64,000 nucleotides of DNA from an uncultured Bacteroidota bacterium (lineage in GTDB: Bacteria > Bacteroidota > Bacteroidia > Chitinophagales > Chitinophagaceae): contig CALEZD010000079.1 of NCBI GenBank assembly GCA_937928385.1, positions 296 to 64,295 of the forward strand. The letters run 5' to 3'. Shown one piece after another: positions 9,248 to 62,039 of the stretch. The first letter of the stretch is position 1. Every line of letters starts with the position of its first letter. A program made the position numbers and the translations under genes. The notes below the pieces were generated by a model that was given only the letters and a program-made list of their open reading frames with translations, made no database searches and was not told the origin of the DNA.

Positions 9248-9424
9248 TAATAAAGTCCTCGCTTTGTTTTTATAAAATTAACGAATAATCCGGTGTAGCT
9301 GGTATTAAGATTGGTTATATTCATATTGCTAACAACACATACTACAATATAAAACAAATAATACCGTGGAAATGTTATTTTTAATTAATGCTATTTTACA
9401 CTCCTGTTACTTAAACTACATTTT

Positions 9425-9799: not shown

Positions 9800-10050
9800 A
9801 CATTTATCGTATTTTTTTAAACAAAAACGGCTAAAATTGCATAATCAGGAAAAATGCGCGATTTTGCTGTACTTCCATTCTATAACTGTAACGCCCTGTT
9901 AATCTGTAGTTTTTTGGTATAAGGCGTTGATATGAAACGAGGATATAAGAGTTCAGGTTTTGCACTCAGGGAAATAAAGATTGGGCGGTTTTACATTTTA
10001 CTAAGCTTCCGCGGGTACCATCTGGCCGCTGGAAAGAAAATTGTTGTCAG

Positions 10051-21342: not shown

Positions 21343-21373
21343 ATAGCCGCACTTAACGTGTGGCTATTTTTTT
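21343..21373 (+). terminator. Rho-independent terminator of the capD-like gene
   Basis: ATAGCCGCAC (21343-21352) and GTGTGGCTAT (21358-21367) form a 10-bp stem with one G-U pair, followed by a T-run of about 7. It overlaps the 3' end of the converging sugar-transferase CDS. Confidence 0.7.
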
Positions 21374-21943
21374 GATGGTAAGCGCGATGATGCGCAGATA
21401 ATTGAATAAGGTGGGGGATGAAATATAAGCCTGGTTGAGCCTTATCTTTTCAGGCATCACCTGCTCTATATAATACCTCTCCGGCTCGGGCTGCGCTGCC
21501 AGCAGGTTGTTCTCGTCTATAAATGTTATGGAAGCTATATCAGTAATGCCGGGTTTTACATTTAATATTTTTCGCTGTTCGGCGGTGTACAGGTCTGTGT
21601 AGCGTTTCACCTCAGGGCGCGGCCCTACAATGCTCATATCACCAATCAGCACATTGAATAGCTGGGGTAACTCATCTAACTTATACTTGCGGAGGAAGGA
21701 ACCGAAAGGGGTAATACGCGGATCGTCACCGCCATAGGTCAGCAGGTCTACCTTGTCGGAATCGGCACGCATAGTACGGAACTTGTACAGGTAAAATTCC
21801 TTGCCGTATTTGCCCACCCGCTTTTGCTTGTAAAATACATTGCCGCATGTATCCGTTTTGATGCGGATAGCAATATATAAGATGAGCGGACTTAGTATTA
21901 TCAATCCTGATAAGGAAAACAGGACGTCAATCAATCTTTTCAT
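21353..21943 (-). CDS. Undecaprenyl-phosphate sugar-phosphate transferase (PglC/WcfS-like small bacterial sugar transferase)
   Basis: 196-aa ORF with a single N-terminal re-entrant helix. It carries the signature YKFRTM ... [21 protein letters not shown]. Confidence 0.9.
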
Positions 21944-23157: not shown

Positions 23158-23158
23158 C

Positions 23159-24175
23159 TTAATTCTTTAGGGCGTATATACGTTCTATTATGTCCACCAC
23201 CTTTGTCCCTTCCAGGACATTGGTCGTTATCTCCGACCTGCCTTTAAGTACGTCCACCACATTCTGTATAACAAAATGGTGGTTGGCCTTAGCAGCTGTA
23301 TAACCTGCAACCTGTTCAACAGGCGAAGATATACTTTCCTTTAATTCATAGTCTTTTATATGGCAATATTCTAATTTGTCCATATACTGCCCGCCTATTT
23401 TCACTGTTCCTTTCTCGGCTACTATTACCATAGTACTTTCCATGTTCCTGTCCCATACGGACGTAGAATAGCTGAGCGAGCCCATGCCCCCATTGACGAA
23501 GCTGAAACTGATAGCTGCGCTATCCTCAAAATCTATCATGCCCTTATGGTTGTTGTTGGCAAAACGGGCGGTTATCCCATGTACATCGCCAAATAGCCAG
23601 TACAGCAAATCGATATAATGGCTGAACTGAGTAAACAAGGTTCCCCCGTCCAGGGCGGCTGTGCCATGCCAGGTATTGCCTGTATAGTATCGTTCATCCC
23701 TGTTCCAATAGCAATGGACGTCTATCATGTATATATCGCCCAGTTTGCCTTCCTCCATCAGTCCTTTCAGCCATTGCATGGCAGGCGAGTAACGGTTTTG
23801 CATGACACAAAATACCTGTTTACCGGTGGTACGGGCACATTGCAGTATGGCATCACAATCTGTGGTTGTCAGTGCAATCGGTTTTTCAATGACCACATCG
23901 GCACCGGCGTTCATACATGCTATGGCTTGTGCGGCATGCAGGGCATTGGGGGTAGCAATACATATTATATCGGCTGAAATGCCTGATTGCAGGAAACTAT
24001 CCAACGAGGCGAAAAAAGGTACGGAGTAAGTACCGGCTGCTTTTACTTCCAGGATGGGGTTTTCATCAATTATGGCTATCAGCTCAGCTTCAGGATGAGC
24101 AGCCACCATGTCAGCATGGCGGGTGCCTATATGCCCCAGCCCCAGTATTGCAAAACGTATCTGCTTATCTCCCAT
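23159..24175 (-). CDS. Gfo/Idh/MocA-family oxidoreductase (WbpB/WlbA-like)
   Basis: 338-aa ORF with N-terminal Rossmann FAILGLGHIGTRHA, then EKP and FCVMQNRYSP. The layout resembles UDP-GlcNAcA 3-dehydrogenases. Confidence 0.8.
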   Translation of the reverse strand: MGDKQIRFAILGLGHIGTRHADMVAAHPEAELIAIIDENPILEVKAAGTYSVPFFASLDSFLQSGISADIICIATPNALHAAQAIACMNAGADVVIEKPIALTTTDCDAILQCARTTGKQVFCVMQNRYSPAMQWLKGLMEEGKLGDIYMIDVHCYWNRDERYYTGNTWHGTAALDGGTLFTQFSHYIDLLYWLFGDVHGITARFANNNHKGMIDFEDSAAISFSFVNGGMGSLSYSTSVWDRNMESTMVIVAEKGTVKIGGQYMDKLEYCHIKDYELKESISSPVEQVAGYTAAKANHHFVIQNVVDVLKGRSEITTNVLEGTKVVDIIERIYALKN

Positions 24176-24187
24176 CTATCTACACGA

Positions 24188-24910
24188 TTATTTCCTCGCC
24201 ACAGTAAAAGCGATGTATTTGCTACCCGGAGGCAGTAAAGGCTGCAAACACCTGTTAATCATATACATCGTATTATTGACTGCTTTGTTTGAAAAAAAGG
24301 TTGGTAAAATACCAAATGTTTTGGTTTGCACAAGGCTGAAGGGGCCGAATAATTTATCTAACTCTGATAAGGAGAGGTAATACCATCCTTTACTTCCTTT
24401 CAGCCTATGGCGCATATAACGGTTGAGGATGCCACCCTGCAGGTTTTCGGCAGAAAAAAAATATCCACCGGGCTTTAATAGCCGGTGGATATGCTGCATA
24501 GCTTGTTCAAGTGCCTCGAAATTGCGGGATGAAGATCTGCCCCGGGTGGGTTTTACCCCGCCGATTACAGATTTGCCGATGATAACATCAAACTGTTCCT
24601 GCGGCCATTCATCATTTACTATGTCGAGTCGTTTGTATTCAATTCTGTCGGTTACTCCATGTTTTTTGTGCAGGGCTGAGGCGGATGCGGCAATGTCTGT
24701 AATATCTGTACAGGTGACGTGGAAACCCATCAATGCCAGCCAGAGGGACAACCCCCCGTTTCGTTCGCCTATTGCCAGGACTTTACCGTCATGGGGCAGT
24801 TGTTCCAATACAGGCTGCCAGTAATGCATCAACCGCGACCAGTTGCGTACATCCCATTCAATTATATCCTGTACGGGAAAATCATTTGTTGCCTTGCCTG
24901 CCAATATCAA
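24188..24910 (-). CDS. Class I SAM-dependent methyltransferase
   Basis: 240-aa ORF with motif I VLAIGERNGGLSLWLALMG and post-I TCTDI. The start is uncertain (29-nt overlap with wecB). Confidence 0.75.
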   Translation of the reverse strand: MILAGKATNDFPVQDIIEWDVRNWSRLMHYWQPVLEQLPHDGKVLAIGERNGGLSLWLALMGFHVTCTDITDIAASASALHKKHGVTDRIEYKRLDIVNDEWPQEQFDVIIGKSVIGGVKPTRGRSSSRNFEALEQAMQHIHRLLKPGGYFFSAENLQGGILNRYMRHRLKGSKGWYYLSLSELDKLFGPFSLVQTKTFGILPTFFSNKAVNNTMYMINRCLQPLLPPGSKYIAFTVARK

Positions 24911-25985
24911 GTAGTGTTTTTACAATACGCTGTGCCGTTTTGCCATCCCATAGGTCGGGGATAGCGCCCTGCTTCCAGTTACCTGTAAAAATACTATTCA
25001 AAGCGGATTCCAGTTTATTTAAATCATCCCCTACCAATTCATTAGTTCCGATAGTTACCGTTTCGGGACGTTCGGTGTTGCTGCGCAGGGTAATGCAGGG
25101 CACACCCATCACGGTGGTTTCCTCCTGTATGCCACCCGAATCGGTAACTACAGCCTTGCAATGGCTGACTAGGTATATAAAGGAGAGGTAGCTCAGGGGT
25201 TCTGTTACCAATAATTTTGGGTGAGTGAAGCCCGAAGCCTCCAACGACTTCATGGTGCGGGGGTGTATAGGAAATATAATATGGTAACCCGGATTGTTTT
25301 TTACCAGTGTTTCCAATATGGCTTTCAGCTTTGCAGGGTCGTCGGCATTGTGCGGGCGGTGCAATGTCAATACCAGGCATTTTGATAAATCAAGCCCGTA
25401 TTGACTAACTAACTGAGGCTCTATAAGGCGGTGCCTGTTCATATACAGGCTGTCTATCATAATATTGCCTACATAATAAACATGTGCAGCGTTGACACCT
25501 GTACGCATCAGGTTTTCATTAGCAGTTTCAGTAGGTGTGAAAAAGTAATCAGAGATAGAGTCTGTAACTATACGGTTAATCTCTTCGGGCATGGTCATAT
25601 CAAATGAGCGGATACCCGCCTCTACGTGCGCTACCTTTATATTCAACTTTTTGGCTACAATGCTGCATGCCAGCGTTGAATTGACATCACCTACTACTAT
25701 CACTATATCACAAGGGTTCTCCAGCAGTTCCTGCTCAAAGCCAATCATAATATTGGCCGTTTGCACAGCCTGTGTTCCGGAGCCTGCATTAAGATTGACA
25801 TCCGGCAAAGGTATCTCCAGTTCATCGAAGAATATACGGCTGAGATTATCATCGTAATGCTGGCCCGTATGCACCAGGCGATAACCAATCTCCCCGCCTT
25901 CATCACGCACACGTACTATCTCCCTGATCAATGGAGCTATTTTCAGAAAATTTGGTCGTGCACCTGCTACTATCGTTACCTTCAT
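24882..25985 (-). CDS. wecB: UDP-N-acetylglucosamine 2-epimerase (non-hydrolysing, WecB/WbpI type)
   Basis: 367-aa ORF with RPNFLKIAPL, HTGQHYD, GSGTQAVQT and HVEAGIRSFDMTMPEEINR signatures. Confidence 0.9.
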   Translation of the reverse strand: MKVTIVAGARPNFLKIAPLIREIVRVRDEGGEIGYRLVHTGQHYDDNLSRIFFDELEIPLPDVNLNAGSGTQAVQTANIMIGFEQELLENPCDIVIVVGDVNSTLACSIVAKKLNIKVAHVEAGIRSFDMTMPEEINRIVTDSISDYFFTPTETANENLMRTGVNAAHVYYVGNIMIDSLYMNRHRLIEPQLVSQYGLDLSKCLVLTLHRPHNADDPAKLKAILETLVKNNPGYHIIFPIHPRTMKSLEASGFTHPKLLVTEPLSYLSFIYLVSHCKAVVTDSGGIQEETTVMGVPCITLRSNTERPETVTIGTNELVGDDLNKLESALNSIFTGNWKQGAIPDLWDGKTAQRIVKTLLDIGRQGNK

Positions 25986-46964: not shown

Positions 46965-47537
46965 TTATTCCAGGCGGATTACTTTACCACCTTCAAGTTT
47001 ATATAGCTGTTTGCTTTCCGGGCAAACAGCAAAACCGTTATTGTCAAACTCCAGTTTGTGCCCGTACTCGCTCATCCAGCCGGATTGCCTTGCCGGGTTG
47101 CCGATTACCAGTGCATAGGGCGGTACGTCTTTAGTAATAACTGCGCCTGCGCCTATAAAGGCATATTCACCTATATTGTTGCCGCATACTATGGTTGCGT
47201 TGGCACCTATCGTTGCGCCCTTGCCTACAAATGTTGTTTCATACTTATCCCTGCGTGCCACGGCACTACGCGGGTTAGTAATATTGGTAAATACGCAGGA
47301 GGGCCCCAGAAAAACATCATCGCCGCAGGTAACCCCGGTGTATATAGATACGTTGTTCTGCACTTTTACATTGTTGCCCAACACCACACCGGGAGATATT
47401 ACTACGTTTTGGCCAATGTTACAGCCATTACCTATTGTGCTCCCGCTCATGAGATGAGAGAAGTGCCAGATTTTTGTATCAGCACCTATACTGCAATTAT
47501 CATCAATAACTGCTGTAGGATGTGCAAAAAAACTCAT
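46965..47537 (-). CDS. Left-handed beta-helix N-acetyltransferase (WbpD/WlbB-like)
   Basis: 190-aa ORF with hexapeptide repeats. Conserved strings are TKIWHFSHLMSGSTIGNGCNIGQNVVISPGV, FTNITNPRS and GNPARQSGWMSEYG, characteristic of UDP-GlcNAc3NA N-acetyltransferases. Confidence 0.85.
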   Translation of the reverse strand: MSFFAHPTAVIDDNCSIGADTKIWHFSHLMSGSTIGNGCNIGQNVVISPGVVLGNNVKVQNNVSIYTGVTCGDDVFLGPSCVFTNITNPRSAVARRDKYETTFVGKGATIGANATIVCGNNIGEYAFIGAGAVITKDVPPYALVIGNPARQSGWMSEYGHKLEFDNNGFAVCPESKQLYKLEGGKVIRLE

Positions 47538-47546
47538 TAATATAAA

Positions 47547-48839
47547 TTACAATCTTGAATCTACCTGCGACCGGTCCAGGCAGCCCTTTACATCGTAAAT
47601 GATGCCACCCGGTGCCAGCCACGCTTTCCAGTCTGTACCCAGGAATTCATTATGTGCTACTGCCAGTACCACCGCATTGTATTGTCCCTGCTCGGGTAAT
47701 TCAGTAGTGGTAGTTACACCATACTCGTGCATTACTTCATCGGTGCTTGCCCACGGATCATATACGGTCAGTGCGATGTCGTATGATTTGAGTTCAGCAA
47801 TGATATCTACCACCCGCGTGTTGCGTACATCGGGGCAGTTCTCTTTGAAAGTGATGCCCAGTACAAGTATTTTAGAGTCTTTAACCGGCATATCCCGCTT
47901 TATCATCTGCTTCACCACCTCATTGGCTATGTAGCCACCCATGCTATCGTTCAGCCTGCGGCCGGCCAGTATTATTTCCGGATGGTAGCCTACTTCCTGT
48001 GCTTTTTGCGCCAGGTAGTACGGGTCAACACCTATGCAGTGGCCGCCTACCAGTCCGGGTTTAAACGGCAGGAAATTCCATTTGGTGCCTGCCGCTGCCA
48101 ATACATCAGATGTGTCAATACCCATGCGGTTGAAAATCTTAGCCAGTTCGTTTACAAAGGCTATATTGATATCCCTCTGGGCGTTTTCAATCACTTTAGC
48201 GGCTTCAGCTACTTTTATACTTGCAGCCTTGTGCGTACCGGCGGTGATGATACTTTTATACAGTTGGTCTACCTTTTCAGCCACTTCGTCATTTGACCCC
48301 GAAGTAACTTTTTTGATTTTCGTTACGGTATGGTTTTTATCGCCGGGGTTGATGCGCTCGGGTGAATAGCCACAATAAAAATCGGTATTAAATTTCAGGC
48401 CGGATATTTTCTCTAATACAGGCACACACTCGTCTTCGGTAACACCCGGGTAAACGGTAGATTCGTACACCACAATATCACCTTTGGCTAATACTTTACC
48501 TACAGTTTCACTCGCCTTATACAATGGTGTAAGGTCGGGGCGGTTGTATTTATCCACCGGGGTGGGCACTGTCACTATATAAAAATTGCAATCAGCGATA
48601 TCTTCCAGCTTATTGGTGCAGTACAACCCTTTGTCAGAAGGTGGTGTTGATACTATGACTGCCTGCAACTCATTATCTTCTACCTCCAGTGTATTATCCT
48701 TTCCGGCCTGAAGTTCTGCAATGCGTTTCTGGTTGATGTCAAAACCTAAAGTTGGAAACTTTTTAGCAAATTCTGCCGCCAGTGGAAGGCCCACATATCC
48801 AAGGCCAATTACTGCAATTCTAATATTATTGTCTGCCAT
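47547..48839 (-). CDS. UDP-N-acetylhexosamine 6-dehydrogenase (TviB/WbpO/WbpA family)
   Basis: 430-aa ORF with N-terminal [46 protein letters not shown] and catalytic-Cys region [14 protein letters not shown]. Confidence 0.9.
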
Positions 48840-52081: not shown

Positions 52082-52176
52082 TGTAAACGTGATATTTTGC
52101 CCAAATGTAGTGAAAAAGACAGGCGATTTATATAATTGGCCATTACTATTCTATAAATGCTATTTTCCGGCATATA

Positions 52177-52676: not shown

Positions 52677-53213
52677 TTAGCCTTTATGCTCCCACAATAA
52701 CAGGTGTGCGCTGATTTCGTCCGAGGTGTTTTTTTCTTCCCATTCAGCCACATCGTATATTATAAATCTCACTTTTTTATTTATCATCTTCTCAGCCTTG
52801 CTCACCATATCCAACAGGTATTTTTTGTCTATCTCTCCTACAAATGTCAGGTCTATTATACCGGAGTCCCTGCCCAGTGCGTAATCTCCTGTCAGGTACA
52901 CCTTTTCCAGTTTACCCATCCGCTCAATTATAGCATCTATTATCTTATCAACACCTATGTACTTCAGCAATATGCTATGAATATCCCTGAACAGTGGGTG
53001 GCTATCATTTGCTTTATACATTTTTTTATTGCCTTTGTTCTCCGACAACAACATATTCGCTTCCTCAAACCGGTTTAACTCTACGCGTACACTATTAGTG
53101 CTTTCGTCAAACTCCTCGGCCAGTCCACGTAAATAGGCCGTAGTGCCCGGATTGAGGAACAACCGCAACAGCAGTTTTATCCTGGTGCGCGATGATATTA
53201 GTGTTTCCAGCAT
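52677..53213 (-). CDS. Winged-helix (ArsR-like) regulator with C-terminal nucleotidyltransferase-like domain
   Basis: 178-aa ORF. The N-terminus (RTRIKLLLRLFLNPGTTAYLRGLAEEFDESTNSVRVELNRFEEANML) has a wHTH layout. The C-terminal LTGDYALGRDSGIIDLTFVG resembles the minimal NTase G-S/x ... D-x-D motif. Its stop is 5 nt from the upxY start. Confidence 0.55.
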   Translation of the reverse strand: MLETLISSRTRIKLLLRLFLNPGTTAYLRGLAEEFDESTNSVRVELNRFEEANMLLSENKGNKKMYKANDSHPLFRDIHSILLKYIGVDKIIDAIIERMGKLEKVYLTGDYALGRDSGIIDLTFVGEIDKKYLLDMVSKAEKMINKKVRFIIYDVAEWEEKNTSDEISAHLLLWEHKG

Positions 53214-53313: not shown

Positions 53314-53321
53314 CAAAAATA
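53314..53321 (-). promoter_or_regulatory. Candidate -7 promoter box (TAnnTTTG) for regulator-upxY-wza transcript
   Basis: The minus strand reads TATTTTTG, immediately upstream of the 53282-53310 hairpin and about 100 nt upstream of the regulator start. Confidence 0.3.
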
Positions 53322-53359: not shown

Positions 53360-54412
53360 TTATAAGGCTAAGGTTTTGATGTCTTCCTGGGCTTTTACGA
53401 AGTCATTGTGCTTACCGATATCCAACCAGTACCCAAGTATCGGGAAGGAAACCAGCTTTTTGCCCTGGCTGATGATGGAATCCATCAGGTCGGTCACATT
53501 GTAAAATTCGTTATGCGGAACTAATGACAACAACTCTTTTTTGATGATATAAATGCCTGCATTTGAATAATAGGTGTAGCAAGGTTTCTCTTTCAATGCG
53601 TTTACAAAGTTTCCGTTGTCCACTTCCATCACTCCATAAGGCACTTCGACACTATACATAGTAGTGGCTACTGCCATATCGGCCCCGGACCTGAGAAATG
53701 CCTGGAAAAAACCATTGAAATCTATATCTGTCAGCAGGTCAGAGTTCATCACCATCACATAGTCGTGCTCCAGTTCTTCTACCATTTTTACCGAACCCAG
53801 GGTACCCAGCGGCTTATCTTCATGTACATAGCTGATAGACACACCCTTATCGCTGCCGTCTTTAAAGTAATCCTGTATCTGTTCGGCCAGGTAGTTAACG
53901 CTCAGGTAAATGTTTTTGATGCCGAATTTCACCAGCCTGTCAATATTATGCTCCAGTATAGGTTTATCGCCTACCTGCAACATGGGCTTGGGGGTATCTG
54001 CTGTCAAAGGCATCAGGCGCTGGCCACGGCCACCGGCCATTATAAATACATCTGCCGGTACTACCGATTGTATTTCAGATAAATTCAGGATTTTAACTAC
54101 TTTCCGGTCCCTGTCTACTACCGGTATCACCATGAAGTTCCTCAACCTCATGTTGTTGAAATCCGTCTTATGTATTTCGTCCTGGTACACAAACAGCGGG
54201 TCGGGCTGAAGGTAATCCATCAGTGAGTTATCGAAGGTCAGCCCTTTGATAAATCCGCGGCGCAGGTCGCCGTCCGTCAGCGAGCCAATGAGCTTTTCCT
54301 GCTCATCTACCACTATCAGGATGGTATTTTTCTTCAGGTCGTTCAGCTTTATCAGCGCGTCCCGCACTGTTTCGTAGCTGTATAAAATGTGTTTCTTGTC
54401 TGTGTTGTACAT
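53360..54412 (-). CDS. CBS-domain sugar-1-phosphate nucleotidyltransferase (PtmE-like)
   Basis: 350-aa ORF with an N-terminal CBS pair (LIGSLTDGDLRRG). The C-terminal NTP-transferase domain has IMAGGRGQRLMPLTADTPKPML. Confidence 0.85.
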   Translation of the reverse strand: MYNTDKKHILYSYETVRDALIKLNDLKKNTILIVVDEQEKLIGSLTDGDLRRGFIKGLTFDNSLMDYLQPDPLFVYQDEIHKTDFNNMRLRNFMVIPVVDRDRKVVKILNLSEIQSVVPADVFIMAGGRGQRLMPLTADTPKPMLQVGDKPILEHNIDRLVKFGIKNIYLSVNYLAEQIQDYFKDGSDKGVSISYVHEDKPLGTLGSVKMVEELEHDYVMVMNSDLLTDIDFNGFFQAFLRSGADMAVATTMYSVEVPYGVMEVDNGNFVNALKEKPCYTYYSNAGIYIIKKELLSLVPHNEFYNVTDLMDSIISQGKKLVSFPILGYWLDIGKHNDFVKAQEDIKTLAL

Positions 54413-54558
54413 AGTGTTTTCTTTTTCTCAGTCCTTATACTGGTTGCAAAGTATAACCGCAGTAGTATATAGCGGAAAAAAGCTAATGGGATAACATCAG
54501 GACAACATGGTGATAACAAACGATTTACATTTCGGAAAGCCCCCGGTTAGTGATGCCA

Positions 54559-54622
54559 TTTAACTCGTTAGTGAATGTTTTTTTATTTGCCTCGTTGAGA
54601 CCGCTATCGCTAAGTTTGTATC
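54559..54622 (+). repeat. Copy 1 of 64-nt direct repeat (137-bp period)
   Basis: TTTAACTCGTTAGTGAATGT...GCCTCGTTGAGACCGCTATCGCTAAGTTTGTATC is near-identical to 54696-54759. Confidence 0.9.
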
Positions 54623-54642
54623 ATTTTGTATCGTTTTGTATC
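54615..54642 (+). repeat. Three 10-bp-phased TTTGTATC iterons
   Basis: TTTGTATC occurs at 54615-22, 54625-32 and 54635-42, exactly one helical turn apart. The TGTATC core recurs at 54754-59 and 54785-90. Confidence 0.85.
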
Positions 54643-54695
54643 GCCACAGGGGGTATCGCAGGATTTTATATTCCTGTTACGATGGAGCAGGCTGT

Positions 54696-54759
54696 TTTAA
54701 CTCGTTAGTGAATGTCTTTTTTATTTGCCTCGTTGAGATCGCTATCGCTAAGTTGTATC
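54696..54759 (+). repeat. Copy 2 of 64-nt direct repeat
   Basis: Same sequence as copy 1 apart from a few substitutions or indels. It is followed by the 16-bp perfect palindrome CCCCGCCGCGGCGGGG (54759-54774) and a second TGTATCGCCACAGGGGTATC (54785-54804; compare 54637-54657). Confidence 0.9.
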
Positions 54760-55641
54760 CCCGCCGCGGCGGGGCAGGCTGTTGTGTATCGCCACAGGGG
54801 TATCAGCCTGAAGTTTTTCTGCCAAGCGGGGAAAAGACTGTACAGCCGGGGGCGGGGCTACGGTATCGCCGTCCTCCGTTTCTGCTTCTTCTTCCTGCGC
54901 ACCCTCGCCGGCATAGTAGCCCGATTCTTCCAACTGCTCATCGGCAAATTTTTTCAGCTCGCGCCATTTCTCGTAATTACGCGTCTGCTCCTCTTCCATC
55001 CTTTTGATATCTTCATTTGTAGGCACATAGTCCAATACCCGCAGCCCCTTTTCTGCATATTCGCGGGCCATGTACGGGTTGTCACGTACTGTTTTTGCGC
55101 GCATGCCGGGGTTGTAGTCCGGGCCATAGCGCATCTCGTTATATTCTTCCAGTTCATTTACAAACTGCCTATAGGATGGGGTTTGGGATTTCGGCTTTTC
55201 GCCAACCGGTTCATCACCAGGCTGCCCCTTGCGGCTGTACCAGTCGTTGGCCAGTTTGGTATCGGCCTCTATAGCGCGTATGATCATAAAGGGCGGCATA
55301 TCAGTTTCCACCATTTCCAGCCTGTCTTTTACCCGGTAGTGTCTTTTTATTTTCACTTCACCCGCTATGATGGCCCGCAGTTGGCGGCGTTTCAGCAGCA
55401 TGGTAGCATACTCCTGCTCTGCCAGCCGCTGTTCTTCTTCGTGGTAGCGGTTAACGGCTTCCTGCTGGGTGGCTGCGAGCCGCTCGCTGATGTATTGCCT
55501 GACATCGGGGTGGTTGGCCAGCCTGCGGGCGGCAATTTTGAGCGCCTCGCCTGTGGCATGGGGGTAGGCAGCTTTGTAGGCTTGGTCTTTATCGCCCGAG
55601 AGGAGGTAATGGTGGGCGAAGAGTTCATGTTCTATTTTCAT
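54748..55641 (-). CDS. Terminase-small-subunit-like (Terminase_2/HTH) protein, orphan
   Basis: The ORF track gives 54748-55740. I prefer Met34 (55641), where MKIEHELFAHHYLLSGDKDQAYKAAYPHATGEALKIAARRLANHPDVRQYISERL matches the TerS N-terminal HTH pattern (F..EYL..gn...AA..AGYs...A...a.rLL.np.V...I). The C-terminal tail is acidic. Confidence 0.5.
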   Translation of the reverse strand: MKIEHELFAHHYLLSGDKDQAYKAAYPHATGEALKIAARRLANHPDVRQYISERLAATQQEAVNRYHEEEQRLAEQEYATMLLKRRQLRAIIAGEVKIKRHYRVKDRLEMVETDMPPFMIIRAIEADTKLANDWYSRKGQPGDEPVGEKPKSQTPSYRQFVNELEEYNEMRYGPDYNPGMRAKTVRDNPYMAREYAEKGLRVLDYVPTNEDIKRMEEEQTRNYEKWRELKKFADEQLEESGYYAGEGAQEEEAETEDGDTVAPPPAVQSFPRLAEKLQADTPVAIHNSLPRRGGDTT

Positions 55642-55805
55642 AGTGATGGCTATTGCGGCCCATCCCGAGGGAAAGGCCGGGTTTTCCGATAATACAAATA
55701 TAGCAATTTTATACGAAATCAGCAATATTTGTGAATTCAAAATTCAAAACTCAAAATTCAAAAGAGGTGTTGTGTGTCCGGCGCGAAAGGCTCCCGGCCC
55801 CTCCA

Positions 55806-55850
55806 CTGGCGCCGGTCTTCCGAAGGGTGACCTGTGTCAGATTAAGTCAC
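55806..55850 (+). repeat. 45-nt REP-like element, copy A
   Basis: CTGGCGCCGGTCTTCCGAAGGGTGACCTGTGTCAGATTAAGTCAC contains a 7-bp stem (GGGTGAC at 55825-31, GTCACCC at 55846-52). It is followed by the palindrome CCGGTCTGAGACCGG (55851-55865). Confidence 0.85.
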
Positions 55851-55912
55851 CCGGTCTGAGACCGGCATTATTTGTTTGTCAGCTTAATAATATATTCGTT
55901 GAAAAATAGCAT

Positions 55913-56464
55913 ATGTCAGGCAGGTACAAAGTCAGGGAGAGTTTCAAGCCTCATTTCGTTACGAGTACAGTAGTGGGTTGGGCGGACGCAATCAGCAGGC
56001 CGGAATACAAAGACATCATACTGGATAGCCTGCGTTATTGCCGTCAGCATAAAAACCTGTTGATACATGCCTGGGTAATTATGAATAACCATATTCACCT
56101 GATAGTAAGTGCAGCCAATGATGCGGACCTACCGGATATTATCCGGGATTTTAAGAAATACACCAGCGGCAGGTTGATTGAAGCCATTTCATCCAACACG
56201 ACTGAAAGCAGGAAGAAATGGTTGCTGAATATGTTTTTGTTTGCAGGGAAAGGTAATCATGATAATGAGCGCTACCAGTTTTGGCAAAAAGATTATCATC
56301 CGATTGAATTGAGCAATGATACTTTATTCCAGCAGAGGTTGGACTATCTGCATGAAAACCCGGTGCGTGCGGGTATAGTGCGTGAGCCGCAACATTATTT
56401 GTATAGCAGCGCTATAGACTACTATGAACAGAAGCCGGGCTTACTTGCCCTGGATATGTTTTAG
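55913..56464 (+). CDS. rayT: REP-associated tyrosine transposase (RayT; IS200-like Y1 transposase)
   Basis: 183-aa ORF with the HUH motif (NHIHLIV), preceded by FVTSTVVGWADAISRPEYKD, and a C-terminal Tyr region (NPVRAGIVREPQHYLYSS). Confidence 0.85.
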   Translation: MSGRYKVRESFKPHFVTSTVVGWADAISRPEYKDIILDSLRYCRQHKNLLIHAWVIMNNHIHLIVSAANDADLPDIIRDFKKYTSGRLIEAISSNTTESRKKWLLNMFLFAGKGNHDNERYQFWQKDYHPIELSNDTLFQQRLDYLHENPVRAGIVREPQHYLYSSAIDYYEQKPGLLALDMF

Positions 56465-56490
56465 TGCTTTCATCTGCTTTTGGTACTCTG

Positions 56491-56512
56491 AATGCCGGTC
56501 AGAGACCGGGTA
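56491..56512 (+). repeat. Right inverted REP arm downstream of rayT
   Basis: AATGCCGGTCAGAGACCGGGTA has the hairpin core CCGGTC-aga-GACCGG (56495-56509). It matches the reverse complement of 55848-55869 at 19 of 21 positions by eye. Confidence 0.8.
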
Positions 56513-56855
56513 AACTAGCAGACACGGATGCCCGCCCGGATGAACCCCGCCAGAATGAACTTGTCGGGCTGGCGTTCGGACGGGCCCTGCTGAACATCCG
56601 CGCCAGTGGGGAAACCATGACAATTAGATTAGCGACCAATTAAATTTTAGCCACACACTGTAATATCTATAATTTGTAAGGTGTACATTTTCAATACCTG
56701 TAATTTTTATGAAAAAAGTAAACGAGAAAAACACCCCCCTTTTGTAAGGATAATGTTTTATAACATTGTTTACAAGTTTGAAGAACCGGTTCAACATTTG
56801 TATGCGTTAGCTGAAAAGCAGAAATAGAGTAGGCATTAACCATAAATTTTAAAAT

Positions 56856-57212
56856 ATGAAAAAAATTATTATGGCAGCATCTTTGCTTGCCTTAATACTT
56901 AGCACCAATGTTACTTATGCTAAGGAAATACGATATCAATCCAAGACGTCATATACTAATAGGAATTTTGAAACTGTTGAGGCAACTGACGATAAACCAC
57001 CAGGTGCCAGATGCCCGGATGTGCCAGGCACTTGCTCAATAACTGTTATTATCTACGATGACTTTACCGGCGATATTGAGATGGAAGCAATGGTTATACC
57101 ATTTAATGACCCTAATCCAAATCCAACTCAAGAATCAACTGATGCTATCCTTAACGATATTTGTATGATCGTTGAAAGCAATGGTGTCATTTATAATGAC
57201 TATCAACCTTAA
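56856..57212 (+). CDS. Small secreted protein (hypothetical)
   Basis: 118-aa ORF with signal peptide MAASLLALILSTNVTYA. It is AT-rich with a Pro/Asn-rich patch NDPNPNPTQ. I recognised no family. Confidence 0.55.
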   Translation: MKKIIMAASLLALILSTNVTYAKEIRYQSKTSYTNRNFETVEATDDKPPGARCPDVPGTCSITVIIYDDFTGDIEMEAMVIPFNDPNPNPTQESTDAILNDICMIVESNGVIYNDYQP

Positions 57213-57257
57213 TAAATACATCTATAATGTGCGTTAATGGCATATAGTTAAAATGAT

Positions 57258-57287
57258 CAGGCTGCCTTGATATTCTAAGGCAGCCTG
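57258..57287 (+). terminator. Intercistronic hairpin (attenuator/terminator)
   Basis: CAGGCTGCCTT (57258-57268) and AAGGCAGCCTG (57277-57287) form a perfect 11-bp stem with an 8-nt loop, between the 118-aa and 477-aa genes. Confidence 0.55.
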
Positions 57288-57309
57288 TATCGTTAATAGT
57301 TATAATAAA

Positions 57310-58743
57310 ATGAAAGTAGTTACATTATTTTTTGTCGCAATCCTAATTTTTACTAATCAAAGTCTGGCACAATGCTTCGTACTAAAAGCAAATATGCGTG
57401 ATTGTGCATTATGCGTTGTGGGTATCTCTAGTTTCAATCCTGTAAAAACAGGGTTACCCGCTTTTGCGATTTTCAATGAATCAAACAGAGAAGATAGTGC
57501 TGATATTGAATATGCCGGTAAGTTTTCTGAACGCGGTATAAAACTTCTGTTCAACGATAACTGGAATGATAAATTAAATTGCGACAACAGCTTGTCATGT
57601 GTTTTTGGGCTAAATAAAGAGGGTAAAGCAGTTTACAAATCATCACTAAAATCAATAGACTCTGCACAGCTTAGCACTTTCCTGTCAAACAATGCGGCAG
57701 AAAAAAGTGCACATAGTAAGCAGAGAGATTCGTTTTTATATACAAACAATGATTTTGGCACAATCAAGATCCTTAATGCCGTAGATAAGCAGTTGATAAA
57801 TACCATAAGTTTCGCCGATTTCGACCTTCAATTGCTGGCCAACAAAATGCATGGGGTAGAAAAGCAAAGGTTTGAAAAATATGGTACCATAATTAACAAA
57901 AGAACTAGTGCCCTCTTGGGGAAATTTCAGAACTTCAGAGTTGACAATATGGGGAACTTATACGTAAAGATATTATTTCATAATACCATGGATAGCCTTA
58001 CCGCTAATATTACAGATGAGCACGCTATTGCCCATTACGATGCCAGGGGTAATTACAAAGATGTTTACCTAATAGAAGTACCCGAAACTGTTTCTTTTCA
58101 TGACTATGATTTTTTACAGGCTAATGAAGATACGCTGTATGCGCTGACTTACGACCGTACTAAGCATAGAGAGCCTGAAAAGCCAATGAGCGAAATCAAT
58201 TTTATTGGCCGCTATGTGAAAAATAGCGGAAATTACCGGTTCTCCGGTTTTGTGCAGTTTAAAATGCCGTATATATATCAATTGAAATTTGGGTATTCTT
58301 ATTTAGGTTCCGGAATTTCCACATATCCATTATTTGTCTCTAAATTCTCTAATTCAGTTTATAACATAGAAACAAATAAATCGGTATTGATTATTGATAG
58401 TGCACAATACATTGCAGGTATAGATACATCATCCTTTAACCCTGAAAAATCTATTGAAACACATGAAAAACTCGATGTACGTGGTATAAAGCCAGTGTAT
58501 GATAAGTCTGATTTATATGCTATGCCTTATTTATACGACGGCAGACTTTATATTAATTATTACACAGCCAACCTGGAAAAAAAACATACCTATCATTGGG
58601 GAGAGGCTACTATAGGGGGCAAACCAATTGTTTCTGCGGCTATAAAAGATGGACAGGATGTCTTTTCTGTAATTTATGCTGATAAACATAAAACATGGAA
58701 ATCCGTCGCAATCCCGATGAGTCTTTTCTATCCCGGGACATAA
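57310..58743 (+). CDS. Secreted protein with N-terminal CxxC, possibly beta-propeller-like (hypothetical)
   Basis: 477-aa ORF with signal peptide FFVAILIFTNQSLAQ and an early CALC motif. It is beta-rich and Asn/Tyr-rich (e.g. VDNMGNLYVKILF), reminiscent of Bacteroidota 6-bladed propeller lipoprotein families. That assignment is not secure. Confidence 0.55.
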   Translation: MKVVTLFFVAILIFTNQSLAQCFVLKANMRDCALCVVGISSFNPVKTGLPAFAIFNESNREDSADIEYAGKFSERGIKLLFNDNWNDKLNCDNSLSCVFGLNKEGKAVYKSSLKSIDSAQLSTFLSNNAAEKSAHSKQRDSFLYTNNDFGTIKILNAVDKQLINTISFADFDLQLLANKMHGVEKQRFEKYGTIINKRTSALLGKFQNFRVDNMGNLYVKILFHNTMDSLTANITDEHAIAHYDARGNYKDVYLIEVPETVSFHDYDFLQANEDTLYALTYDRTKHREPEKPMSEINFIGRYVKNSGNYRFSGFVQFKMPYIYQLKFGYSYLGSGISTYPLFVSKFSNSVYNIETNKSVLIIDSAQYIAGIDTSSFNPEKSIETHEKLDVRGIKPVYDKSDLYAMPYLYDGRLYINYYTANLEKKHTYHWGEATIGGKPIVSAAIKDGQDVFSVIYADKHKTWKSVAIPMSLFYPGT

Positions 58744-58754
58744 TAAGACCTTTT

Positions 58755-58799
58755 CTGGCGCCGGTCTTCCAATGGGTGACCTGTGTCAGATCAAGTCAT
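58755..58799 (+). repeat. 45-nt REP-like element, copy B
   Basis: CTGGCGCCGGTCTTCCAATGGGTGACCTGTGTCAGATCAAGTCAT is in the same orientation as copy A and matches it at 41 of 45 positions by eye. Confidence 0.85.
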
Positions 58800-59010
58800 C
58801 TGCACCGAAGCCCAGCCTCTTTCTCCCGTCACTACGAGGCACGAAGCAGTCTCGCCAAATGAGGAGTGGGTTCGGTGTTACGCGAGATTATCTCGTTCAT
58901 TATATCTTGTCATTTGCCTCAATGATTGCTTCGCAGTTGCTTCCGCCATAACGCAACGGGCGTTACTATGTCGCAATGACCCCGCCTTGACGGACGGGGC
59001 AGGCAGCTAG
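58800..59010. repeat. Cluster of short GC-rich imperfect palindromes (REP/BIME-like intergenic filler)
   Basis: It contains GTCACTACGAGGCACGAAGCAGTCTCGC, CGAGATTATCTCG, GATTGCTTCGC...GTCGCAATGAC and CCCCGCC-ttgacg-GACGGGG (58980-58999). These motifs resemble the widespread Bacteroidota ...CGCAATGAC / GATTGCTTCG... intergenic repeats. Confidence 0.5.
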
Positions 59011-59032
59011 TAGGAAATGCCTACTCTATATA

Positions 59033-60175
59033 TCAAGGCCTGTAGCTACTGGGGATATTCACCACACGGTCTTCCAGCCATTCTGAATTACTCAAATCGC
59101 TGCACTGGCAGTGGCTGAACATGGGGAGTTTATTCATCAGCCGCCATATAGGGCGTGTCATTACGCCGCTGTTGTTGGTTGCTTCAAGGAAGGCGTTTCT
59201 TTCCTCAAGGTTATTCAATACTACACAGTTGAGCCAGTAGTTGGCAATGCTGCCGGGTTGCTCAGTAACAAACCCGATATCCGTATTTGAAAAGTATTGA
59301 CGGTATGATTCTGCAAGGTTGCGTTTATTGGCCAATATATTTTCCAGTTGTTCCAGTTGCGCGCAGGCCAGTGCTGCATTCAGGTTAGGCATCCGGAAGT
59401 TGTAGCCTATTTCATCATGCACAAACTCCCAGGGGTGGGGCACCTTTGCGGTGGTAGATATATGTTTGGCGTGTTTGGCCAGCGCTTCATCATTAGTAAC
59501 AATAGCTCCGCCACCGCCGCAGGTAACTGTTTTATTACCGTTAAAACTGAACGTGCCTAATTTACCGAAGGTGCCGGTATGTATGCCTTGGTAATAGCTA
59601 CCCAGCGATTCTGCTGCATCTTCTACCAGTACTATATGCCAGCGTTCGCATATTGTCACCAGTTCATCAATACGGGCAGGAAAACCGAATGTATGCATGG
59701 GTATGCAGGCGGCTATTTTTCTGCCGGTTGTTTTGTTGTAAGCCGCACCGTCTTTTACTACCGCATGTTCCTGCAGAAATTGTTCCAGCGCATCGGGCGA
59801 CATGCCCATGGTATCCCTGTCCACATCAATAAATACAGGTATAGCGTTGCTGTGTACTATAGCATTGGCAGTGGCCACAAAAGTGAGCGGCTGTGTTATT
59901 ACTTCATCTCCGGCCTTTACGCCCGCTACCACCAGCGATAGTTGTAAAGCAACAGTGCCATTGGTAGTGGCTACCGCATATTTGGCGCCGGTTATTTCGG
60001 CCATCATTTCTTCAAAACGATTGACATAAGCCCCAACTGAAGACACAAAAGTGGAATCAATAGTATCTGCCAGGTACTTTTTTTCGTTACCGCCAAAGTA
60101 TGGGGCATGCAACGGTACAAAGCCTTCAGGGGCATTGAATACCTCCCTGATGTATTGAATAACGGGACTAAACAT
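59033..60175 (-). CDS. LegC-family PLP aminotransferase (DegT superfamily)
   Basis: 380-aa ORF with N-terminal PLHAPYFGGNEKKYLADTIDSTFVSSVGAYVNRFEE ... GAKYAVATTNGTVALQLSL and the Lys region FSFNGNKTVTCGGGGAI. Confidence 0.85.
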   Translation of the reverse strand: MFSPVIQYIREVFNAPEGFVPLHAPYFGGNEKKYLADTIDSTFVSSVGAYVNRFEEMMAEITGAKYAVATTNGTVALQLSLVVAGVKAGDEVITQPLTFVATANAIVHSNAIPVFIDVDRDTMGMSPDALEQFLQEHAVVKDGAAYNKTTGRKIAACIPMHTFGFPARIDELVTICERWHIVLVEDAAESLGSYYQGIHTGTFGKLGTFSFNGNKTVTCGGGGAIVTNDEALAKHAKHISTTAKVPHPWEFVHDEIGYNFRMPNLNAALACAQLEQLENILANKRNLAESYRQYFSNTDIGFVTEQPGSIANYWLNCVVLNNLEERNAFLEATNNSGVMTRPIWRLMNKLPMFSHCQCSDLSNSEWLEDRVVNIPSSYRP

Positions 60176-61145
60176 TTTTATACTTGCTGTCGTCAGGGTT
60201 CAGAATAAAGCCGGCGTCCAGCACTTCCTTTATTTGCCTGATGCCATCAGGAACTGTGAACATCAGTTCAAAGCCCAGTTTTTCCTTGATTTTTGAAAAA
60301 TTAACCCTGTAATCGCGTGGGTCTTCATTTTTAGATACATACTTCACTTTAGCACCGGGTATCTGTTTTATGATTTCATCCACTATCATTTGCTTCTGAT
60401 AGTTTTCTGCTGTATCACCTACATTAAATACATCAAAGGCTACCTTTTCTTCGGGCGACTCGATTACTTTTACTACCGAACGGGCCAGGTCGTACACATG
60501 GCAATACGGCCTCCAGAATTGCTCGCCAAATACCACCAGTTCCCTGCCCAGTGCCAGCTCTTTGGTAAACTCATTCACCGTCAGGTCGAACCTTGGCCGT
60601 AATGATAAACCGTATACCGTGGAGAAACGCAGGCAGGTAGGTTTGCAGGTGTTGGTTTTTGGTTGCGATAATAAATATTGTTCGGTGGCTACTTTTGTTT
60701 CAGCATACAAGGATACGGGTGCCAGTGCAGAATCTTCGTGTACAAAAGCTTCCGGGTCGTCCATCTTACCATAGTTGCTACAGGTAGAGGCGAATATGAA
60801 TTTCTTCACGCCCTTTTCATTAGCTACATCGTACAGCAGTTTGCTACCTTCCAGATTGGTGCTTTTTGATAATTCAGGGTCCTGGGCACATGCCGGGTCG
60901 CCCACTATGGCTGCCAGGTGCGCCACACAGTCCATGCCTGCTACCGCCTTTTCTACATCAGCCCTATTGCGGACATCCCCTTTTATAAATTCAAAATTCG
61001 GGTAGTTAAACATATCGATGATGGGTTCTCCTCCATACATCAAGCTGTCCATTACACGTACATGGTATCCCTTCTCTAATAACTGCCGGGTTAATACAGA
61101 ACCTATATAACCTGCACCTCCGGTAACTAAAACTTTTTCAGACAT
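60168..61145 (-). CDS. NAD-dependent NDP-sugar 4,6-dehydratase/epimerase (LegB-like extended SDR)
   Basis: 325-aa ORF with VLVTGGAGYIGSVLTRQLLEKGY, the catalytic YAETK, and RFSTVYGLSLRPRFDLTVNEF. It overlaps the aminotransferase gene by 8 nt. Confidence 0.85.
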   Translation of the reverse strand: MSEKVLVTGGAGYIGSVLTRQLLEKGYHVRVMDSLMYGGEPIIDMFNYPNFEFIKGDVRNRADVEKAVAGMDCVAHLAAIVGDPACAQDPELSKSTNLEGSKLLYDVANEKGVKKFIFASTCSNYGKMDDPEAFVHEDSALAPVSLYAETKVATEQYLLSQPKTNTCKPTCLRFSTVYGLSLRPRFDLTVNEFTKELALGRELVVFGEQFWRPYCHVYDLARSVVKVIESPEEKVAFDVFNVGDTAENYQKQMIVDEIIKQIPGAKVKYVSKNEDPRDYRVNFSKIKEKLGFELMFTVPDGIRQIKEVLDAGFILNPDDSKYKNV

Positions 61146-61253: not shown

Positions 61254-62039
61254 TTAAAATTGAATTAAAGGGTTCCTCAGGGGTTTGCTTTGCAACAGGG
61301 CCATTATATCCTCTTTCCGGGTGATGTTTTGCACCACTTCCGTATGCCTCAGGTTATGCATATCCGTTCCCACATAATCATACATCCCCATCGCAAACAG
61401 TTTTTCGGCCACCTGTTTCACCGGTTTGCCGTAATAACCCATGAGTGAATTGATATTCATTTGCAGATAACAGCCCCTGTTTTTCAATTCTTCGTACTTG
61501 TCCAGGTCATGGTGATAGTACATATACCTTTCAGGATGCGCCATGATAGGTTGGTACCCTCTTGAGGTAAGCCTGAATATAATTTCACCAAGTTGTATAG
61601 GCTCAAACATGAATGATATTTCCACCAGTACCTCGTTCTTCCATACGGTAAGCAGTTGTTCCGTATCCAGCAGTTGCAGGAAGTAATCATCTATATAATA
61701 TTCTGCCGCCGCGTGTATGGGCATATCTATGCCACGTTCGGTAAGCGCGCTTTTTACTTCGGCAAGTTGATTAAGTATGATTGCGGGTGTATTAGGGTAA
61801 TTATCTACTTTGATATGCGGGGTGGTTACTATGCGTTTATACCCCAGTTGCTTCATCTGTGTGATTAGTTCTATGCTTTCTTCCATGGTCTGTGCACCAT
61901 CGTCTATGCCGGGCAAAAAATGAGAGTGCATATCGGCTCCCAGGAAAGACATGTCGTGTACAAGCGGCTGTCCGTTATAAGCCACTTCAATTTTTTCCTT
62001 TTTTTTCGAGCCAAACAATCTTGAAAACATATAAAGCAA
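61254..62039 (-). CDS. cpsB: PHP-family protein-tyrosine phosphatase (CpsB/CapC/YwqE type)
   Basis: 261-aa ORF with metal-binding motifs DMHSHFLPGIDDGA, TPH and AHPERY. The start may be Met4 (62030). Confidence 0.8.
   Translation of the reverse strand: MLYMFSRLFGSKKKEKIEVAYNGQPLVHDMSFLGADMHSHFLPGIDDGAQTMEESIELITQMKQLGYKRIVTTPHIKVDNYPNTPAIILNQLAEVKSALTERGIDMPIHAAAEYYIDDYFLQLLDTEQLLTVWKNEVLVEISFMFEPIQLGEIIFRLTSRGYQPIMAHPERYMYYHHDLDKYEELKNRGCYLQMNINSLMGYYGKPVKQVAEKLFAMGMYDYVGTDMHNLRHTEVVQNITRKEDIMALLQSKPLRNPLIQF

Follow-up and report, generated by a model that had tools for sequence, protein, structure and literature searches.

The 64-kb stretch of DNA analysed here (hereafter the window; mean G+C 43.7%) is part of contig CALEZD010000079.1 from an uncultured member of the Chitinophagaceae and contains a polysaccharide locus whose head is interrupted by an island. 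On the minus strand, cpsB is the first gene of an upstream unit that continues with an extended short-chain dehydrogenase/reductase (SDR) gene and legC, a LegC-family sugar 4-aminotransferase gene. Beyond the interruption, the strand resumes with a CBS-domain sugar-1-phosphate nucleotidyltransferase gene. Between legC and the nucleotidyltransferase gene lie a minus-strand gene resembling phage small-terminase genes (TerS-like), a plus-strand transposase gene accompanied by repetitive extragenic palindromic (REP) sequences, and two further plus-strand genes, o118 and o477, referred to below as the cargo (Table 1). The open reading frame (ORF) positions given in a preliminary description of the window were reproduced in an ORF recount.

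Table 1. Features of the island and of the genes on either side (positions refer to the window; labels such as L001 denote related loci or genomes).
Feature	Position	Strand	Remarks
CBS-domain sugar-1-phosphate nucleotidyltransferase	53360-54412	-	CBS, residues 11-52; NTP_transferase, residues 124-346
Native leader of the nucleotidyltransferase gene, outside the insert	54413-54527 (115 nt)	-	Aligns with the L002 empty-site spacer, more loosely with L005-L007
Tandem duplication of the TerS-like gene 3' end	54559-54800	-	One copy in L085, L086 and L088; two in L004
TerS-like ORF, 330 codons	54748-55740	-	Terminase_2 21.7 bits (below cut-off 26.1); phrog_51 E 2e-6
Promoter-like motif TATATTTG	55695-55702	-	Upstream of the TerS-like gene; kept in L085, L088, L090 and L094
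7-nt tandem repeat AATTCAA, 4.3 copies	55734-55763	-	Just upstream of the promoter-like motif; kept in L085
REP copy 1, compound hairpin	55803-55869	+	In the divergent region between the transposase and TerS-like genes
REP-associated tyrosine transposase (RAYT)	55913-56464	+	NF047646 107.4 bits (cut-off 80)
REP copy 2, inverted relative to copies 1 and 3, with a 54-nt internal insertion	56491-56609	-	Directly 3' of the transposase gene
DUF805b-type RNA motif, candidate cis-regulatory leader	56801-56835	+	RF02914 37.4 bits (cut-off 35.6)
o118, small protein with a signal-peptide-like N-terminus	56856-57212	+	No Pfam match; L084 has a homologous ORF ahead of its o477 homologue
Strong hairpin between o118 and o477	57258-57287	+	dG -16.4 kcal/mol, z = -5.8
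o477, predicted secreted beta-propeller protein	57310-58743	+	36% G+C; AlphaFold2 pLDDT 64; generic propeller matches
REP copy 3, 93% direct repeat of 55806-55849	58755-58798	+	Bounds the cargo on the legC side; also in L085, L004 and L088
legC-proximal end of the insert	58799-59010	-	Absent from empty-site L002; partly common to L001, L003 and L085
Palindrome GTAACGCCCGTTGCGTTA	58949-58966	-	In the legC-proximal end of the insert
GC hairpin, begins GCCTGCCCCG	~58980-59004	-	Fold z = -2.4 for a 73-nt stretch
Second small hairpin, native spacer after the legC stop	59009-59025		Just outside the insert
LegC-family sugar 4-aminotransferase, pyridoxal phosphate-dependent, DegT-type	59033-60175	-	TIGR04181
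Extended SDR	60168-61145	-	Closest solved structure 6vo6
cpsB, PHP-type tyrosine phosphatase	61254-62039	-	CpsB_CapC 158 bits; syntenic in all close relatives

A composite insertion in a short spacer

Related loci were gathered by a protein scan with the aminotransferase, taking one genome per species, which gave 80 loci; the closest are labelled Flavipsychrobacter or Chitinophagaceae. Exact-sequence look-ups with the aminotransferase and with the o477 protein yielded no record. Gene order across the relatives was mapped by tblastn and junctions were fixed by nucleotide alignment. Eighteen relatives (L001-L017 and L019) make up what is called the Flavipsychrobacter-like clade below. The preliminary description had predicted that close relatives would show an empty site, and 14 do (L002, L005-L013, L015-L017 and L019). 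In each, the aminotransferase gene is followed by the nucleotidyltransferase gene across a gap of only 103-239 nt, and the order (cpsB)-SDR-aminotransferase-nucleotidyltransferase is common to all of them; in most, the nucleotidyltransferase gene is followed in turn by a gene for a 178-aa protein, UpxY, wza and wzc. The island thus splits a conserved three-gene cassette of SDR, LegC-family aminotransferase and CBS-domain nucleotidyltransferase, as had been proposed.

The corresponding spacer in L002 is 136 nt long and reads ...GTTTTTCCTA|ATTGTAAACCGTTTGTTATC... across the junction, which in the alignment of empty sites is TTTCCTA|ATTGTAAAC. In the window TTTCCTA ends at 59011 and TAAATCGTTTGTTATC picks up again at 54527. 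These positions place the insert at about 54528-59010 (~4.48 kb), so that the insertion described earlier as a 4.6-kb island (54413-59032) is real, while its extent is somewhat smaller. The right junction is identical across all occupied genomes.

A mosaic origin of the intervening DNA, also suggested earlier, was confirmed: it consists of three modules with separate histories, namely the TerS-like gene, the REP-associated transposase and the cargo slot. Cargo differs in every relative examined. G+C content is 54.6% in the TerS-like gene and 30-37% in the cargo; earlier spot counts of 37/60 (55441-55500) and 18/60 (57841-57900) were exact. Relative to their hosts, TerS-like genes are 4-11 points higher in G+C and o477 homologues are 5-6 points lower, and these offsets belong to the gene families, not to this site.

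On this evidence we consider it highly probable that 54528-59010 is a lineage-specific composite insertion in a short spacer of a Flavipsychrobacter-type polysaccharide locus, and that the site is an ordinary strain-variable hot spot.

One slot with different cargos

The slot between legC and the transposase and TerS-like genes has a different content in every genome examined, with five cargos found at the one position: o118 and o477 in the window, 79-aa and 224-aa ORFs in L001, a 1269-aa Kelch protein of the type IX secretion system kind in L085, three small ORFs in L088, and a 278-aa ORF in L004. PADLOC gave no match for any cargo ORF from the five genomes, and the slot is therefore not demonstrably a defence island. 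In L003 (11143-21140) the polysaccharide locus ends after legC, and an Abi_alpha gene at the slot junction, a 48%-identical REP-type transposase, purK and purE are found there. As the L003 locus ends at this same junction, this point is also one at which rearrangement has broken the locus.

Within the window the cargo has a recognizable internal order. The DUF805b motif, the only Rfam match in the 64 kb, has one of its four stem pairs in non-standard form and lies 20 nt upstream of o118, which is not a member of the DUF805 family. The same motif precedes the homologous gene pair in L084 (7535-7570), and the hairpin between the two genes is also kept there, with one change on both arms. All four elements (RNA motif, small gene, hairpin and o477 homologue) thus occur together in L084 at an unrelated locus, and in L081 an o477 homologue stands alone after pntB. 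These observations show that the cargo forms a unit in itself, acquired from another place in the gene pool of the Chitinophagaceae. The o477 protein matched no family in Pfam, NCBIfam, PHROG or PADLOC; it has only 16 homologues, located at unrelated loci in other Chitinophagaceae, and dN/dS (ratio of nonsynonymous to synonymous substitution rates) values of 0.13-0.18. Judged by their N-termini, both o118 and o477 would begin with signal-peptide-like sequences. An exact 14-nt inverted copy of the 3' tail of the DUF805b motif (ATAGAGTAGGCATT) is located at 59016-59029, right after the legC stop codon.

The REP-associated transposase

The presence of a Y1 transposase with REP hairpins, noted earlier, was substantiated. 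The protein passes the RAYT cut-off and contains both the HUH motif (NNHIHLIV) and the tyrosine motif FWQKDYHP. It is 98% identical in amino acid sequence to its counterpart in L001, with a dN/dS of 0.045. The 64 kb contain three REP copies, all inside the island. The arms that are inverted with respect to each other pair 55803-55827 with 56585-56609 and 55849-55869 with 56491-56511. Copy 2 has a palindrome core and is present in uninterrupted form in L001, where the REP-transposase-REP arrangement likewise stands beside the TerS-like gene. A truncated transposase remnant is found in L088, and REPs only in L004. Copies 2 and 3, which are inverted relative to one another, bracket the cargo of the window; in L085 a second palindrome type brackets the Kelch gene. 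A metagenome scan with a REP 16-mer returned 120 stretches, none of which extends to REP similarity; their median G+C is 65%, and we regard them as chance matches.

With a fixed junction and differing accessory genes beside a RAYT, the site provides a usable case for asking whether REP systems help gene exchange.

A solitary TerS-like gene and its repeat array

The TerS-like gene is the one unusual part of the insert: a domesticated-looking solitary small-terminase homologue with a repeat array of its own. Its true start is probably Met34 (MKIEHELFAHHY...), the start found in all homologues, which would give a gene of 54748-55641 on the minus strand and a protein of ~297 aa. A 326-aa plus-strand ORF at 54712-55692 was rejected as a shadow ORF, as it had no matches in three libraries and the opposite strand carries the conserved family.

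The gene had been called an orphan, a description that does not hold across relatives. It adjoins the nucleotidyltransferase gene on the upstream side in L004, L085, L086, L087 and L088; in the last four of these it lies directly upstream, and on the same strand, of the series nucleotidyltransferase-178-aa gene-UpxY-wza-wzc, and in L004 it occupies the same position but is frameshifted. The position next to the nucleotidyltransferase gene is held in at least six genomes. With dN/dS values of 0.13-0.20 in three comparisons, the TerS-like gene is under purifying selection; it is a conserved neighbour.

Homologues form a small family (25 matches, all from Chitinophagales-type sources). Among 1.84 billion representatives, a profile search detected 292 relatives; full-length ones make up only ~8 clusters, and the others cover only the N-terminal ~135 residues. 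Terminase_2 was matched by all ten of the profile-search relatives sampled, in four of them above the cut-off. Modelled with AlphaFold from an alignment of the family (pLDDT, the model confidence score, 77), the protein shows a helix-turn-helix (HTH), a 48-residue helix, a beta-hairpin and further helices. Its top PDB matches are all to the SF6 (SPP1-like) small terminase (3zqq, E 2e-3; DNA-binding domain 4zc3, template-modelling (TM) score 0.83, root-mean-square deviation 1.6 A), and five of the eight BFVD matches at E <= 1e-3 are named small terminase. According to the model, the N-terminal half has a small-terminase fold, and the C-terminal half (~150 aa) would be specific to the family.

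The surroundings of the family are not those of a phage. Members further removed (34-48% identity) stand alone in three unrelated chromosomal contexts, in which no large terminase, capsid or integrase gene was found within 8 kb, and no phage genes were detected within 8-10 kb of TerS-like genes in the seven contexts examined. The protein had no match in 50,697 phage records searched by tblastn or in IMG/VR.

The tandem duplication reported earlier at the 3' end of the gene is real, with a period of ~138 nt and copies at 54559-54652 and 54696-54800. The proximal copy carries a GC hairpin at ~54759-54779 that rewrites the TerS-like C-terminus. The distal copy retains a triple 10-nt phased repeat (54615-54644), so that the duplication separates the gene from its array. 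In the 1.74 Mb of Bacteroidota loci retrieved for comparison, this triple repeat (GCGATACAAAAyGATACAgAAyGATACAA) occurs 11 times, each time at a TerS-like gene and on its coding strand; sites include L085 10847, L086 1129, L088 3281, L004 14190, L090 8907 and L092 9237. The repeat is located at or just past the 3' end of the gene, being coding in some members and beyond the stop codon in others (as in L090), and may represent a protein-binding array. Tandem duplications of 150-190 nt are also found 3' of distant TerS-like genes (L092 ~9330-9590 and L094 ~9690-9900), and the duplicated unit of L092 has a GC hairpin (GCCTGCCCCGACACATTCGGGG) resembling two hairpins of the window. The family may thus have a common downstream architecture.

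Two functions can be envisaged. The gene stands at the head of the ~33-kb polysaccharide locus and points into it. A solitary TerS-like gene with its triple repeat might constitute a minimal packaging-initiation module, whose product would bind the array and attract the large terminase supplied by a phage during infection, leading to headful packaging into the locus. We regard this as very unlikely; if true, it would imply high-frequency transduction of the locus and a satellite-like or lateral-transduction-like route to capsule switching. As a milder alternative, the protein could have been domesticated from a terminase and now regulate the downstream genes by binding DNA. Stand-alone small-terminase homologues of Chitinophagales with a promoter-like motif and a phased repeat array constitute a small family not previously described and, if its members bind their repeats, either a new type of regulator or a packaging device.

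The split sugar cassette and its product

The aminotransferase was correctly assigned to the LegC family in the preliminary description: it scores 553.2 bits against TIGR04181 (cut-off 420) over residues 20-377, a full-length match, and has a dN/dS of ~0.05. A link of the nucleotidyltransferase to PtmE was also supported. The protein is 43-56% identical to the gene product at the PtmE position of clusters that carry NeuB and NeuC (L020, L022, L033 and others), including 55% identity to the one encoded after NeuD-NeuB-NeuC in L020, a Pedobacter cluster. This homology makes the association of a LegC-family gene with a PtmE-position gene real. The best solved relatives of the nucleotidyltransferase are GDP-mannose pyrophosphorylase and HddC-type enzymes, its best NCBIfam relatives are guanylyltransferases as well, and the enzyme is probably a guanylyltransferase itself. 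It is 98.6% identical in amino acid sequence to its L002 counterpart (dN/dS 0.015, dS 0.59).

The SDR, on the other hand, is not the LegB-like dehydratase it had been taken for. Its score against the LegB model TIGR04180 is 90.5 bits, far from the cut-off of 475 and below its scores against GalE and RmlB models. Orthologues in L002 and L040 likewise fail the LegB model, and the protein is only 25-28% identical to the dehydratases found beside LegC in canonical clusters. Its similarity to 6vo6 amounts to 39% identity over 307 residues (E 3e-56 and 4e-66 in two comparisons), with a YxxxK motif common to both, and its dN/dS against L002 is 0.035. The enzyme is probably a nucleoside diphosphate (NDP)-sugar C4 oxidase or 4,6-dehydratase. 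The entries 6vo6 and 6vo8 are named "putative sugar-nucleotide epimerase/dehydratase", and we take them to be Campylobacter jejuni Cj1427, a GDP-heptose C4-dehydrogenase. If the SDR works like Cj1427, it would oxidize C4 without 6-deoxygenation, and its product would lead to a sugar of the 4-amino-4-deoxy type, not of the 4,6-dideoxy type. Proteins of the same distinct SDR subfamily, 72-75% identical, occur in L040, L046 and L061. As two of these loci (L040 and L061) have no NeuB, several Bacteroidota may use the SDR-aminotransferase pair as a module to make a 4-amino sugar that is not a nonulosonic acid.

As the preliminary description had stated, late genes of legionaminic acid synthesis are missing from the window. 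No NeuB, NeuC or NeuD homologue was found in the 64 kb, and no LegF/CMP-transferase domain in Pfam scans of the locus ORFs. Among the 80 LegC loci as a whole, 44 have NeuB within 10 kb, the distance applied as the proximity criterion for NeuB and NeuC throughout. None of the 18 clade relatives has NeuB or NeuC at this distance, whether its site is empty or occupied. The empty-site relatives thus also lack late genes, and from this it follows that the three-gene cassette is ancestral and that nothing was replaced. Given that the SDR fails the LegB model and that late genes were not found, we infer that the end product is likely a GDP-linked 4-amino-4-deoxy or 4-amino-4,6-dideoxy hexosamine, an NDP-4-amino sugar and not a nonulosonic acid.

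The split is physical and has not inactivated the cassette: all three genes are intact and under strong constraint, with dN/dS values of 0.015-0.05, and the native leader of the nucleotidyltransferase gene has been retained. The locus should be read as containing a short ancestral GDP-4-amino-sugar cassette, not a damaged legionaminic acid pathway.

A separate set of sugar genes is located at 21353-25985 and 46965-48839 on the minus strand and resembles WbpA/B/E/D/I (UDP-sugar 6-dehydrogenase, GFO oxidoreductase, DegT aminotransferase, hexapeptide acetyltransferase and 2-epimerase). The locus also has a small PglC-like initiating transferase and a divergent WbpM/PglF-type dehydratase (19381-21321). 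Together these genes suggest a route to a di-N-acetylated uronic acid plus a second amino-sugar route, independent of the split cassette.

Transcription across the island

The three plus-strand island genes face legC, and read-through from legC would run antisense to them over ~3.3 kb. A hairpin placed by the preliminary description just after legC (58980-58999) exists, at ~58980-59004. It has no T-tail and was not flagged by the terminator scan, and its initial sequence GCCTGCCCCG occurs in exact form only twice in the window.

On the minus strand, the Bacteroidetes-type promoter motif TAnnTTTG is found upstream of the 178-aa gene and UpxY (53314-53321), of wza (52102-52109) and of the TerS-like gene (55695-55702). 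The motif is under-represented in the window, with 38 occurrences against 65 +/- 7 expected, and this scarcity fits selection against spurious promoters. A sigma-70 promoter scan gave no enrichment (17 found, 15.6 expected), although this promoter type is not the right one for Bacteroidota. Because of the motif upstream of the 178-aa gene and UpxY, the downstream operon probably has a start of its own whether the island is present or not. The island had been thought to uncouple this operon from cpsB, the SDR gene and legC; on the present evidence the regulator-UpxY operon probably never depended on legC read-through. The three cassette enzymes most likely still supply the polysaccharide with a GDP-linked 4-amino sugar, and would be expressed from separate transcripts. 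Throughout the clade the 178-aa gene (52677-53213, minus strand) precedes the UpxY/NusG-like gene; it is the putative regulator of the preliminary description, belongs to no family and has weak matches only, to DUF7342 and phrog_18520.

Origin of the insertion

The proposed history starts from a tight cassette of SDR, aminotransferase and nucleotidyltransferase genes lying directly upstream of regulator-UpxY-wza-wzc and lacking late genes, an arrangement that the empty sites indicate to be ancestral. A solitary TerS-like unit, equipped with a promoter-like motif and a phased 10-nt repeat array, would then have inserted ~115 nt upstream of the nucleotidyltransferase gene and been kept by purifying selection, and REPs together with the transposase would have colonised the gap between the aminotransferase and TerS-like genes. 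The gap acts as a cargo slot, as judged from its differing contents; here it holds the DUF805b-type leader, o118, the strong hairpin and o477. Recombination would swap one cargo for another, with crossovers in the palindromic repeats or in the conserved flanks.

Trees of the two flanks bear on the later steps. Empty-site L002 nests among occupied genomes in both trees, and the empty genomes L005-L007 fall outside. Flank identity to the window is 85-87% for L002, 78% for L004 and 82% for L086 and L088. Presence or absence of the insert therefore does not follow the flanks, and the pattern needs one of three events: the allele was replaced, the insert was lost precisely in L002, or homologous recombination spread the occupied allele. 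Identity to L085 is 89% in the left flank and 96% in the right, and compared with L001 the transposase gene is 95% identical at the nucleotide level against 87% for the flank; such uneven identities are signs of recombination. Purifying selection was seen on all genes for which dN/dS was computed.

Several points weigh against the history proposed above. The original insertion left no recombinase, no tRNA gene and no clear terminal repeats: the 64-kb window contains no tRNA gene, and scans with Pfam, NCBIfam and PHROG found no integrase domain. A candidate 8-nt target duplication (TTTCCTAA / TTTCCGAA) and candidate terminal inverted repeats were too weak to claim. The integrase, tRNA target and flanking direct repeats of a classical integrative genomic island are accordingly missing here. 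A role of the REPs and the transposase in cargo exchange is one we infer from adjacency alone, and REPs also build up passively in intergenic DNA. The flank trees are simple neighbour-joining trees of ~2 kb per flank, and most of the relatives are metagenome-assembled genomes, in which strain mixtures could blur the pattern of presence and absence.

Other origins were weighed against the same data. The preliminary description had offered, as one of two alternatives, that late legionaminic acid genes (equivalents of LegH/G/I/F) originally stood between legC and the ptmE-like gene and were replaced by the island. In other lineages, the frequency of NeuB near LegC (44 of 80 loci) and a cluster such as L020, which has NeuD, NeuB and NeuC between LegC and the CBS-domain nucleotidyltransferase, make a longer ancestor conceivable in deep time. 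In the clade itself, all 14 empty-site relatives have nothing between the two genes, NeuB and NeuC are absent within 10 kb from all 18 relatives, no close relative with neuB/neuC-type genes at the junction has been found so far, and the SDR belongs to a different family from the canonical dehydratases; replacement is highly improbable. It is very unlikely, too, that the occupied state is ancestral and that the empty sites arose by repeated deletion with no insertion at all. The nesting of L002 within the occupied group makes at least one loss or allelic replacement plausible, but 13 outgroup genomes, with 63-84% amino acid identity in the nucleotidyltransferase, are all empty, and their spacers align with one another and with L002 across the junction, which would require many independent precise deletions.

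A decayed prophage or phage-satellite remnant, with the TerS-like gene a dying leftover and the rest debris, would account for the small-terminase fold, the weak Terminase_2 and phrog_51 matches, the deviant composition of the gene and its frameshift in L004. Set against this are its low dN/dS and fixed position in at least six genomes, the conserved promoter-like motif and 3' repeat array, the solitary distant homologues in three chromosomal contexts where phage genes were not found within 8 kb, and the lack of matches in the phage records and IMG/VR; we consider such a remnant unlikely. The apparently uncultured, draft source of the contig and the abrupt changes in composition also raise the question of an assembly chimera. 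This is extremely improbable, as the legC-side sequence is common to the independent assemblies L085 and L001, the order REP-transposase-REP-TerS-like gene recurs in L001, the junction of the TerS-like and nucleotidyltransferase genes is common to L085, L086, L088 and L004, and a protein identical to o477 is recorded on a 102.8-kb contig. A composite insertion at a strain-variable site thus remains the explanation we favour.

Comparison with known systems

In C. jejuni and Tannerella forsythia, legionaminic acid is made on GDP-sugars by PtmE, LegB and LegC and then by LegH/G/I/F, and PtmE is specific for GTP with glucosamine 1-phosphate (GlcN-1-P) (PMC5378307). The cassette of the window resembles this pathway (PMC5378307) in its LegC-family aminotransferase, its PtmE-position homologue and an SDR gene directly upstream with a 4-bp-style overlap. 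It differs in that the SDR fails the LegB model and that genes for NeuD, NeuB, NeuC and a CMP-transferase were not found in the window, nor NeuD, NeuB or NeuC within 10 kb in the 18 clade relatives.

The TerS-like protein resembles the SPP1/SF6 small terminase G1P (3zqq, 3zqm and 4zc3): in the model, its HTH superposes and its helix/beta-hairpin core matches the oligomerisation domain. Unlike G1P, it is encoded by a solitary chromosomal gene, has an extra C-terminal half of ~150 aa, scores below the Pfam cut-off in the window and has no matches in the phage collections searched.

The well-studied REP/RAYT cases are from Proteobacteria, and the host here belongs to the Bacteroidota. As in those systems (PMC3116915, PMC5581495), an HUH/Y1 transposase is flanked by inverted REPs, with a further copy nearby. 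Here, in contrast, the REPs lie on either side of a 2.1-kb gene cargo and mark out a strain-variable slot, and the three copies in the 64 kb are all within the island. We know of no description of REPINs in which bracketing of cargo or a variable slot is one of their properties.

Islets and insertion hot spots that vary among strains are a known feature of bacterial surface-polysaccharide loci, and the present site is like them in its fixed junction, its differing accessory genes, its deviant composition and the signs of recombination in its flanks. It differs from the known islets in having no integrase, tRNA gene or insertion sequence (IS) element, and in that its slot lies inside a biosynthetic cassette, not at the edge of the locus, and is marked by REP-type palindromes.

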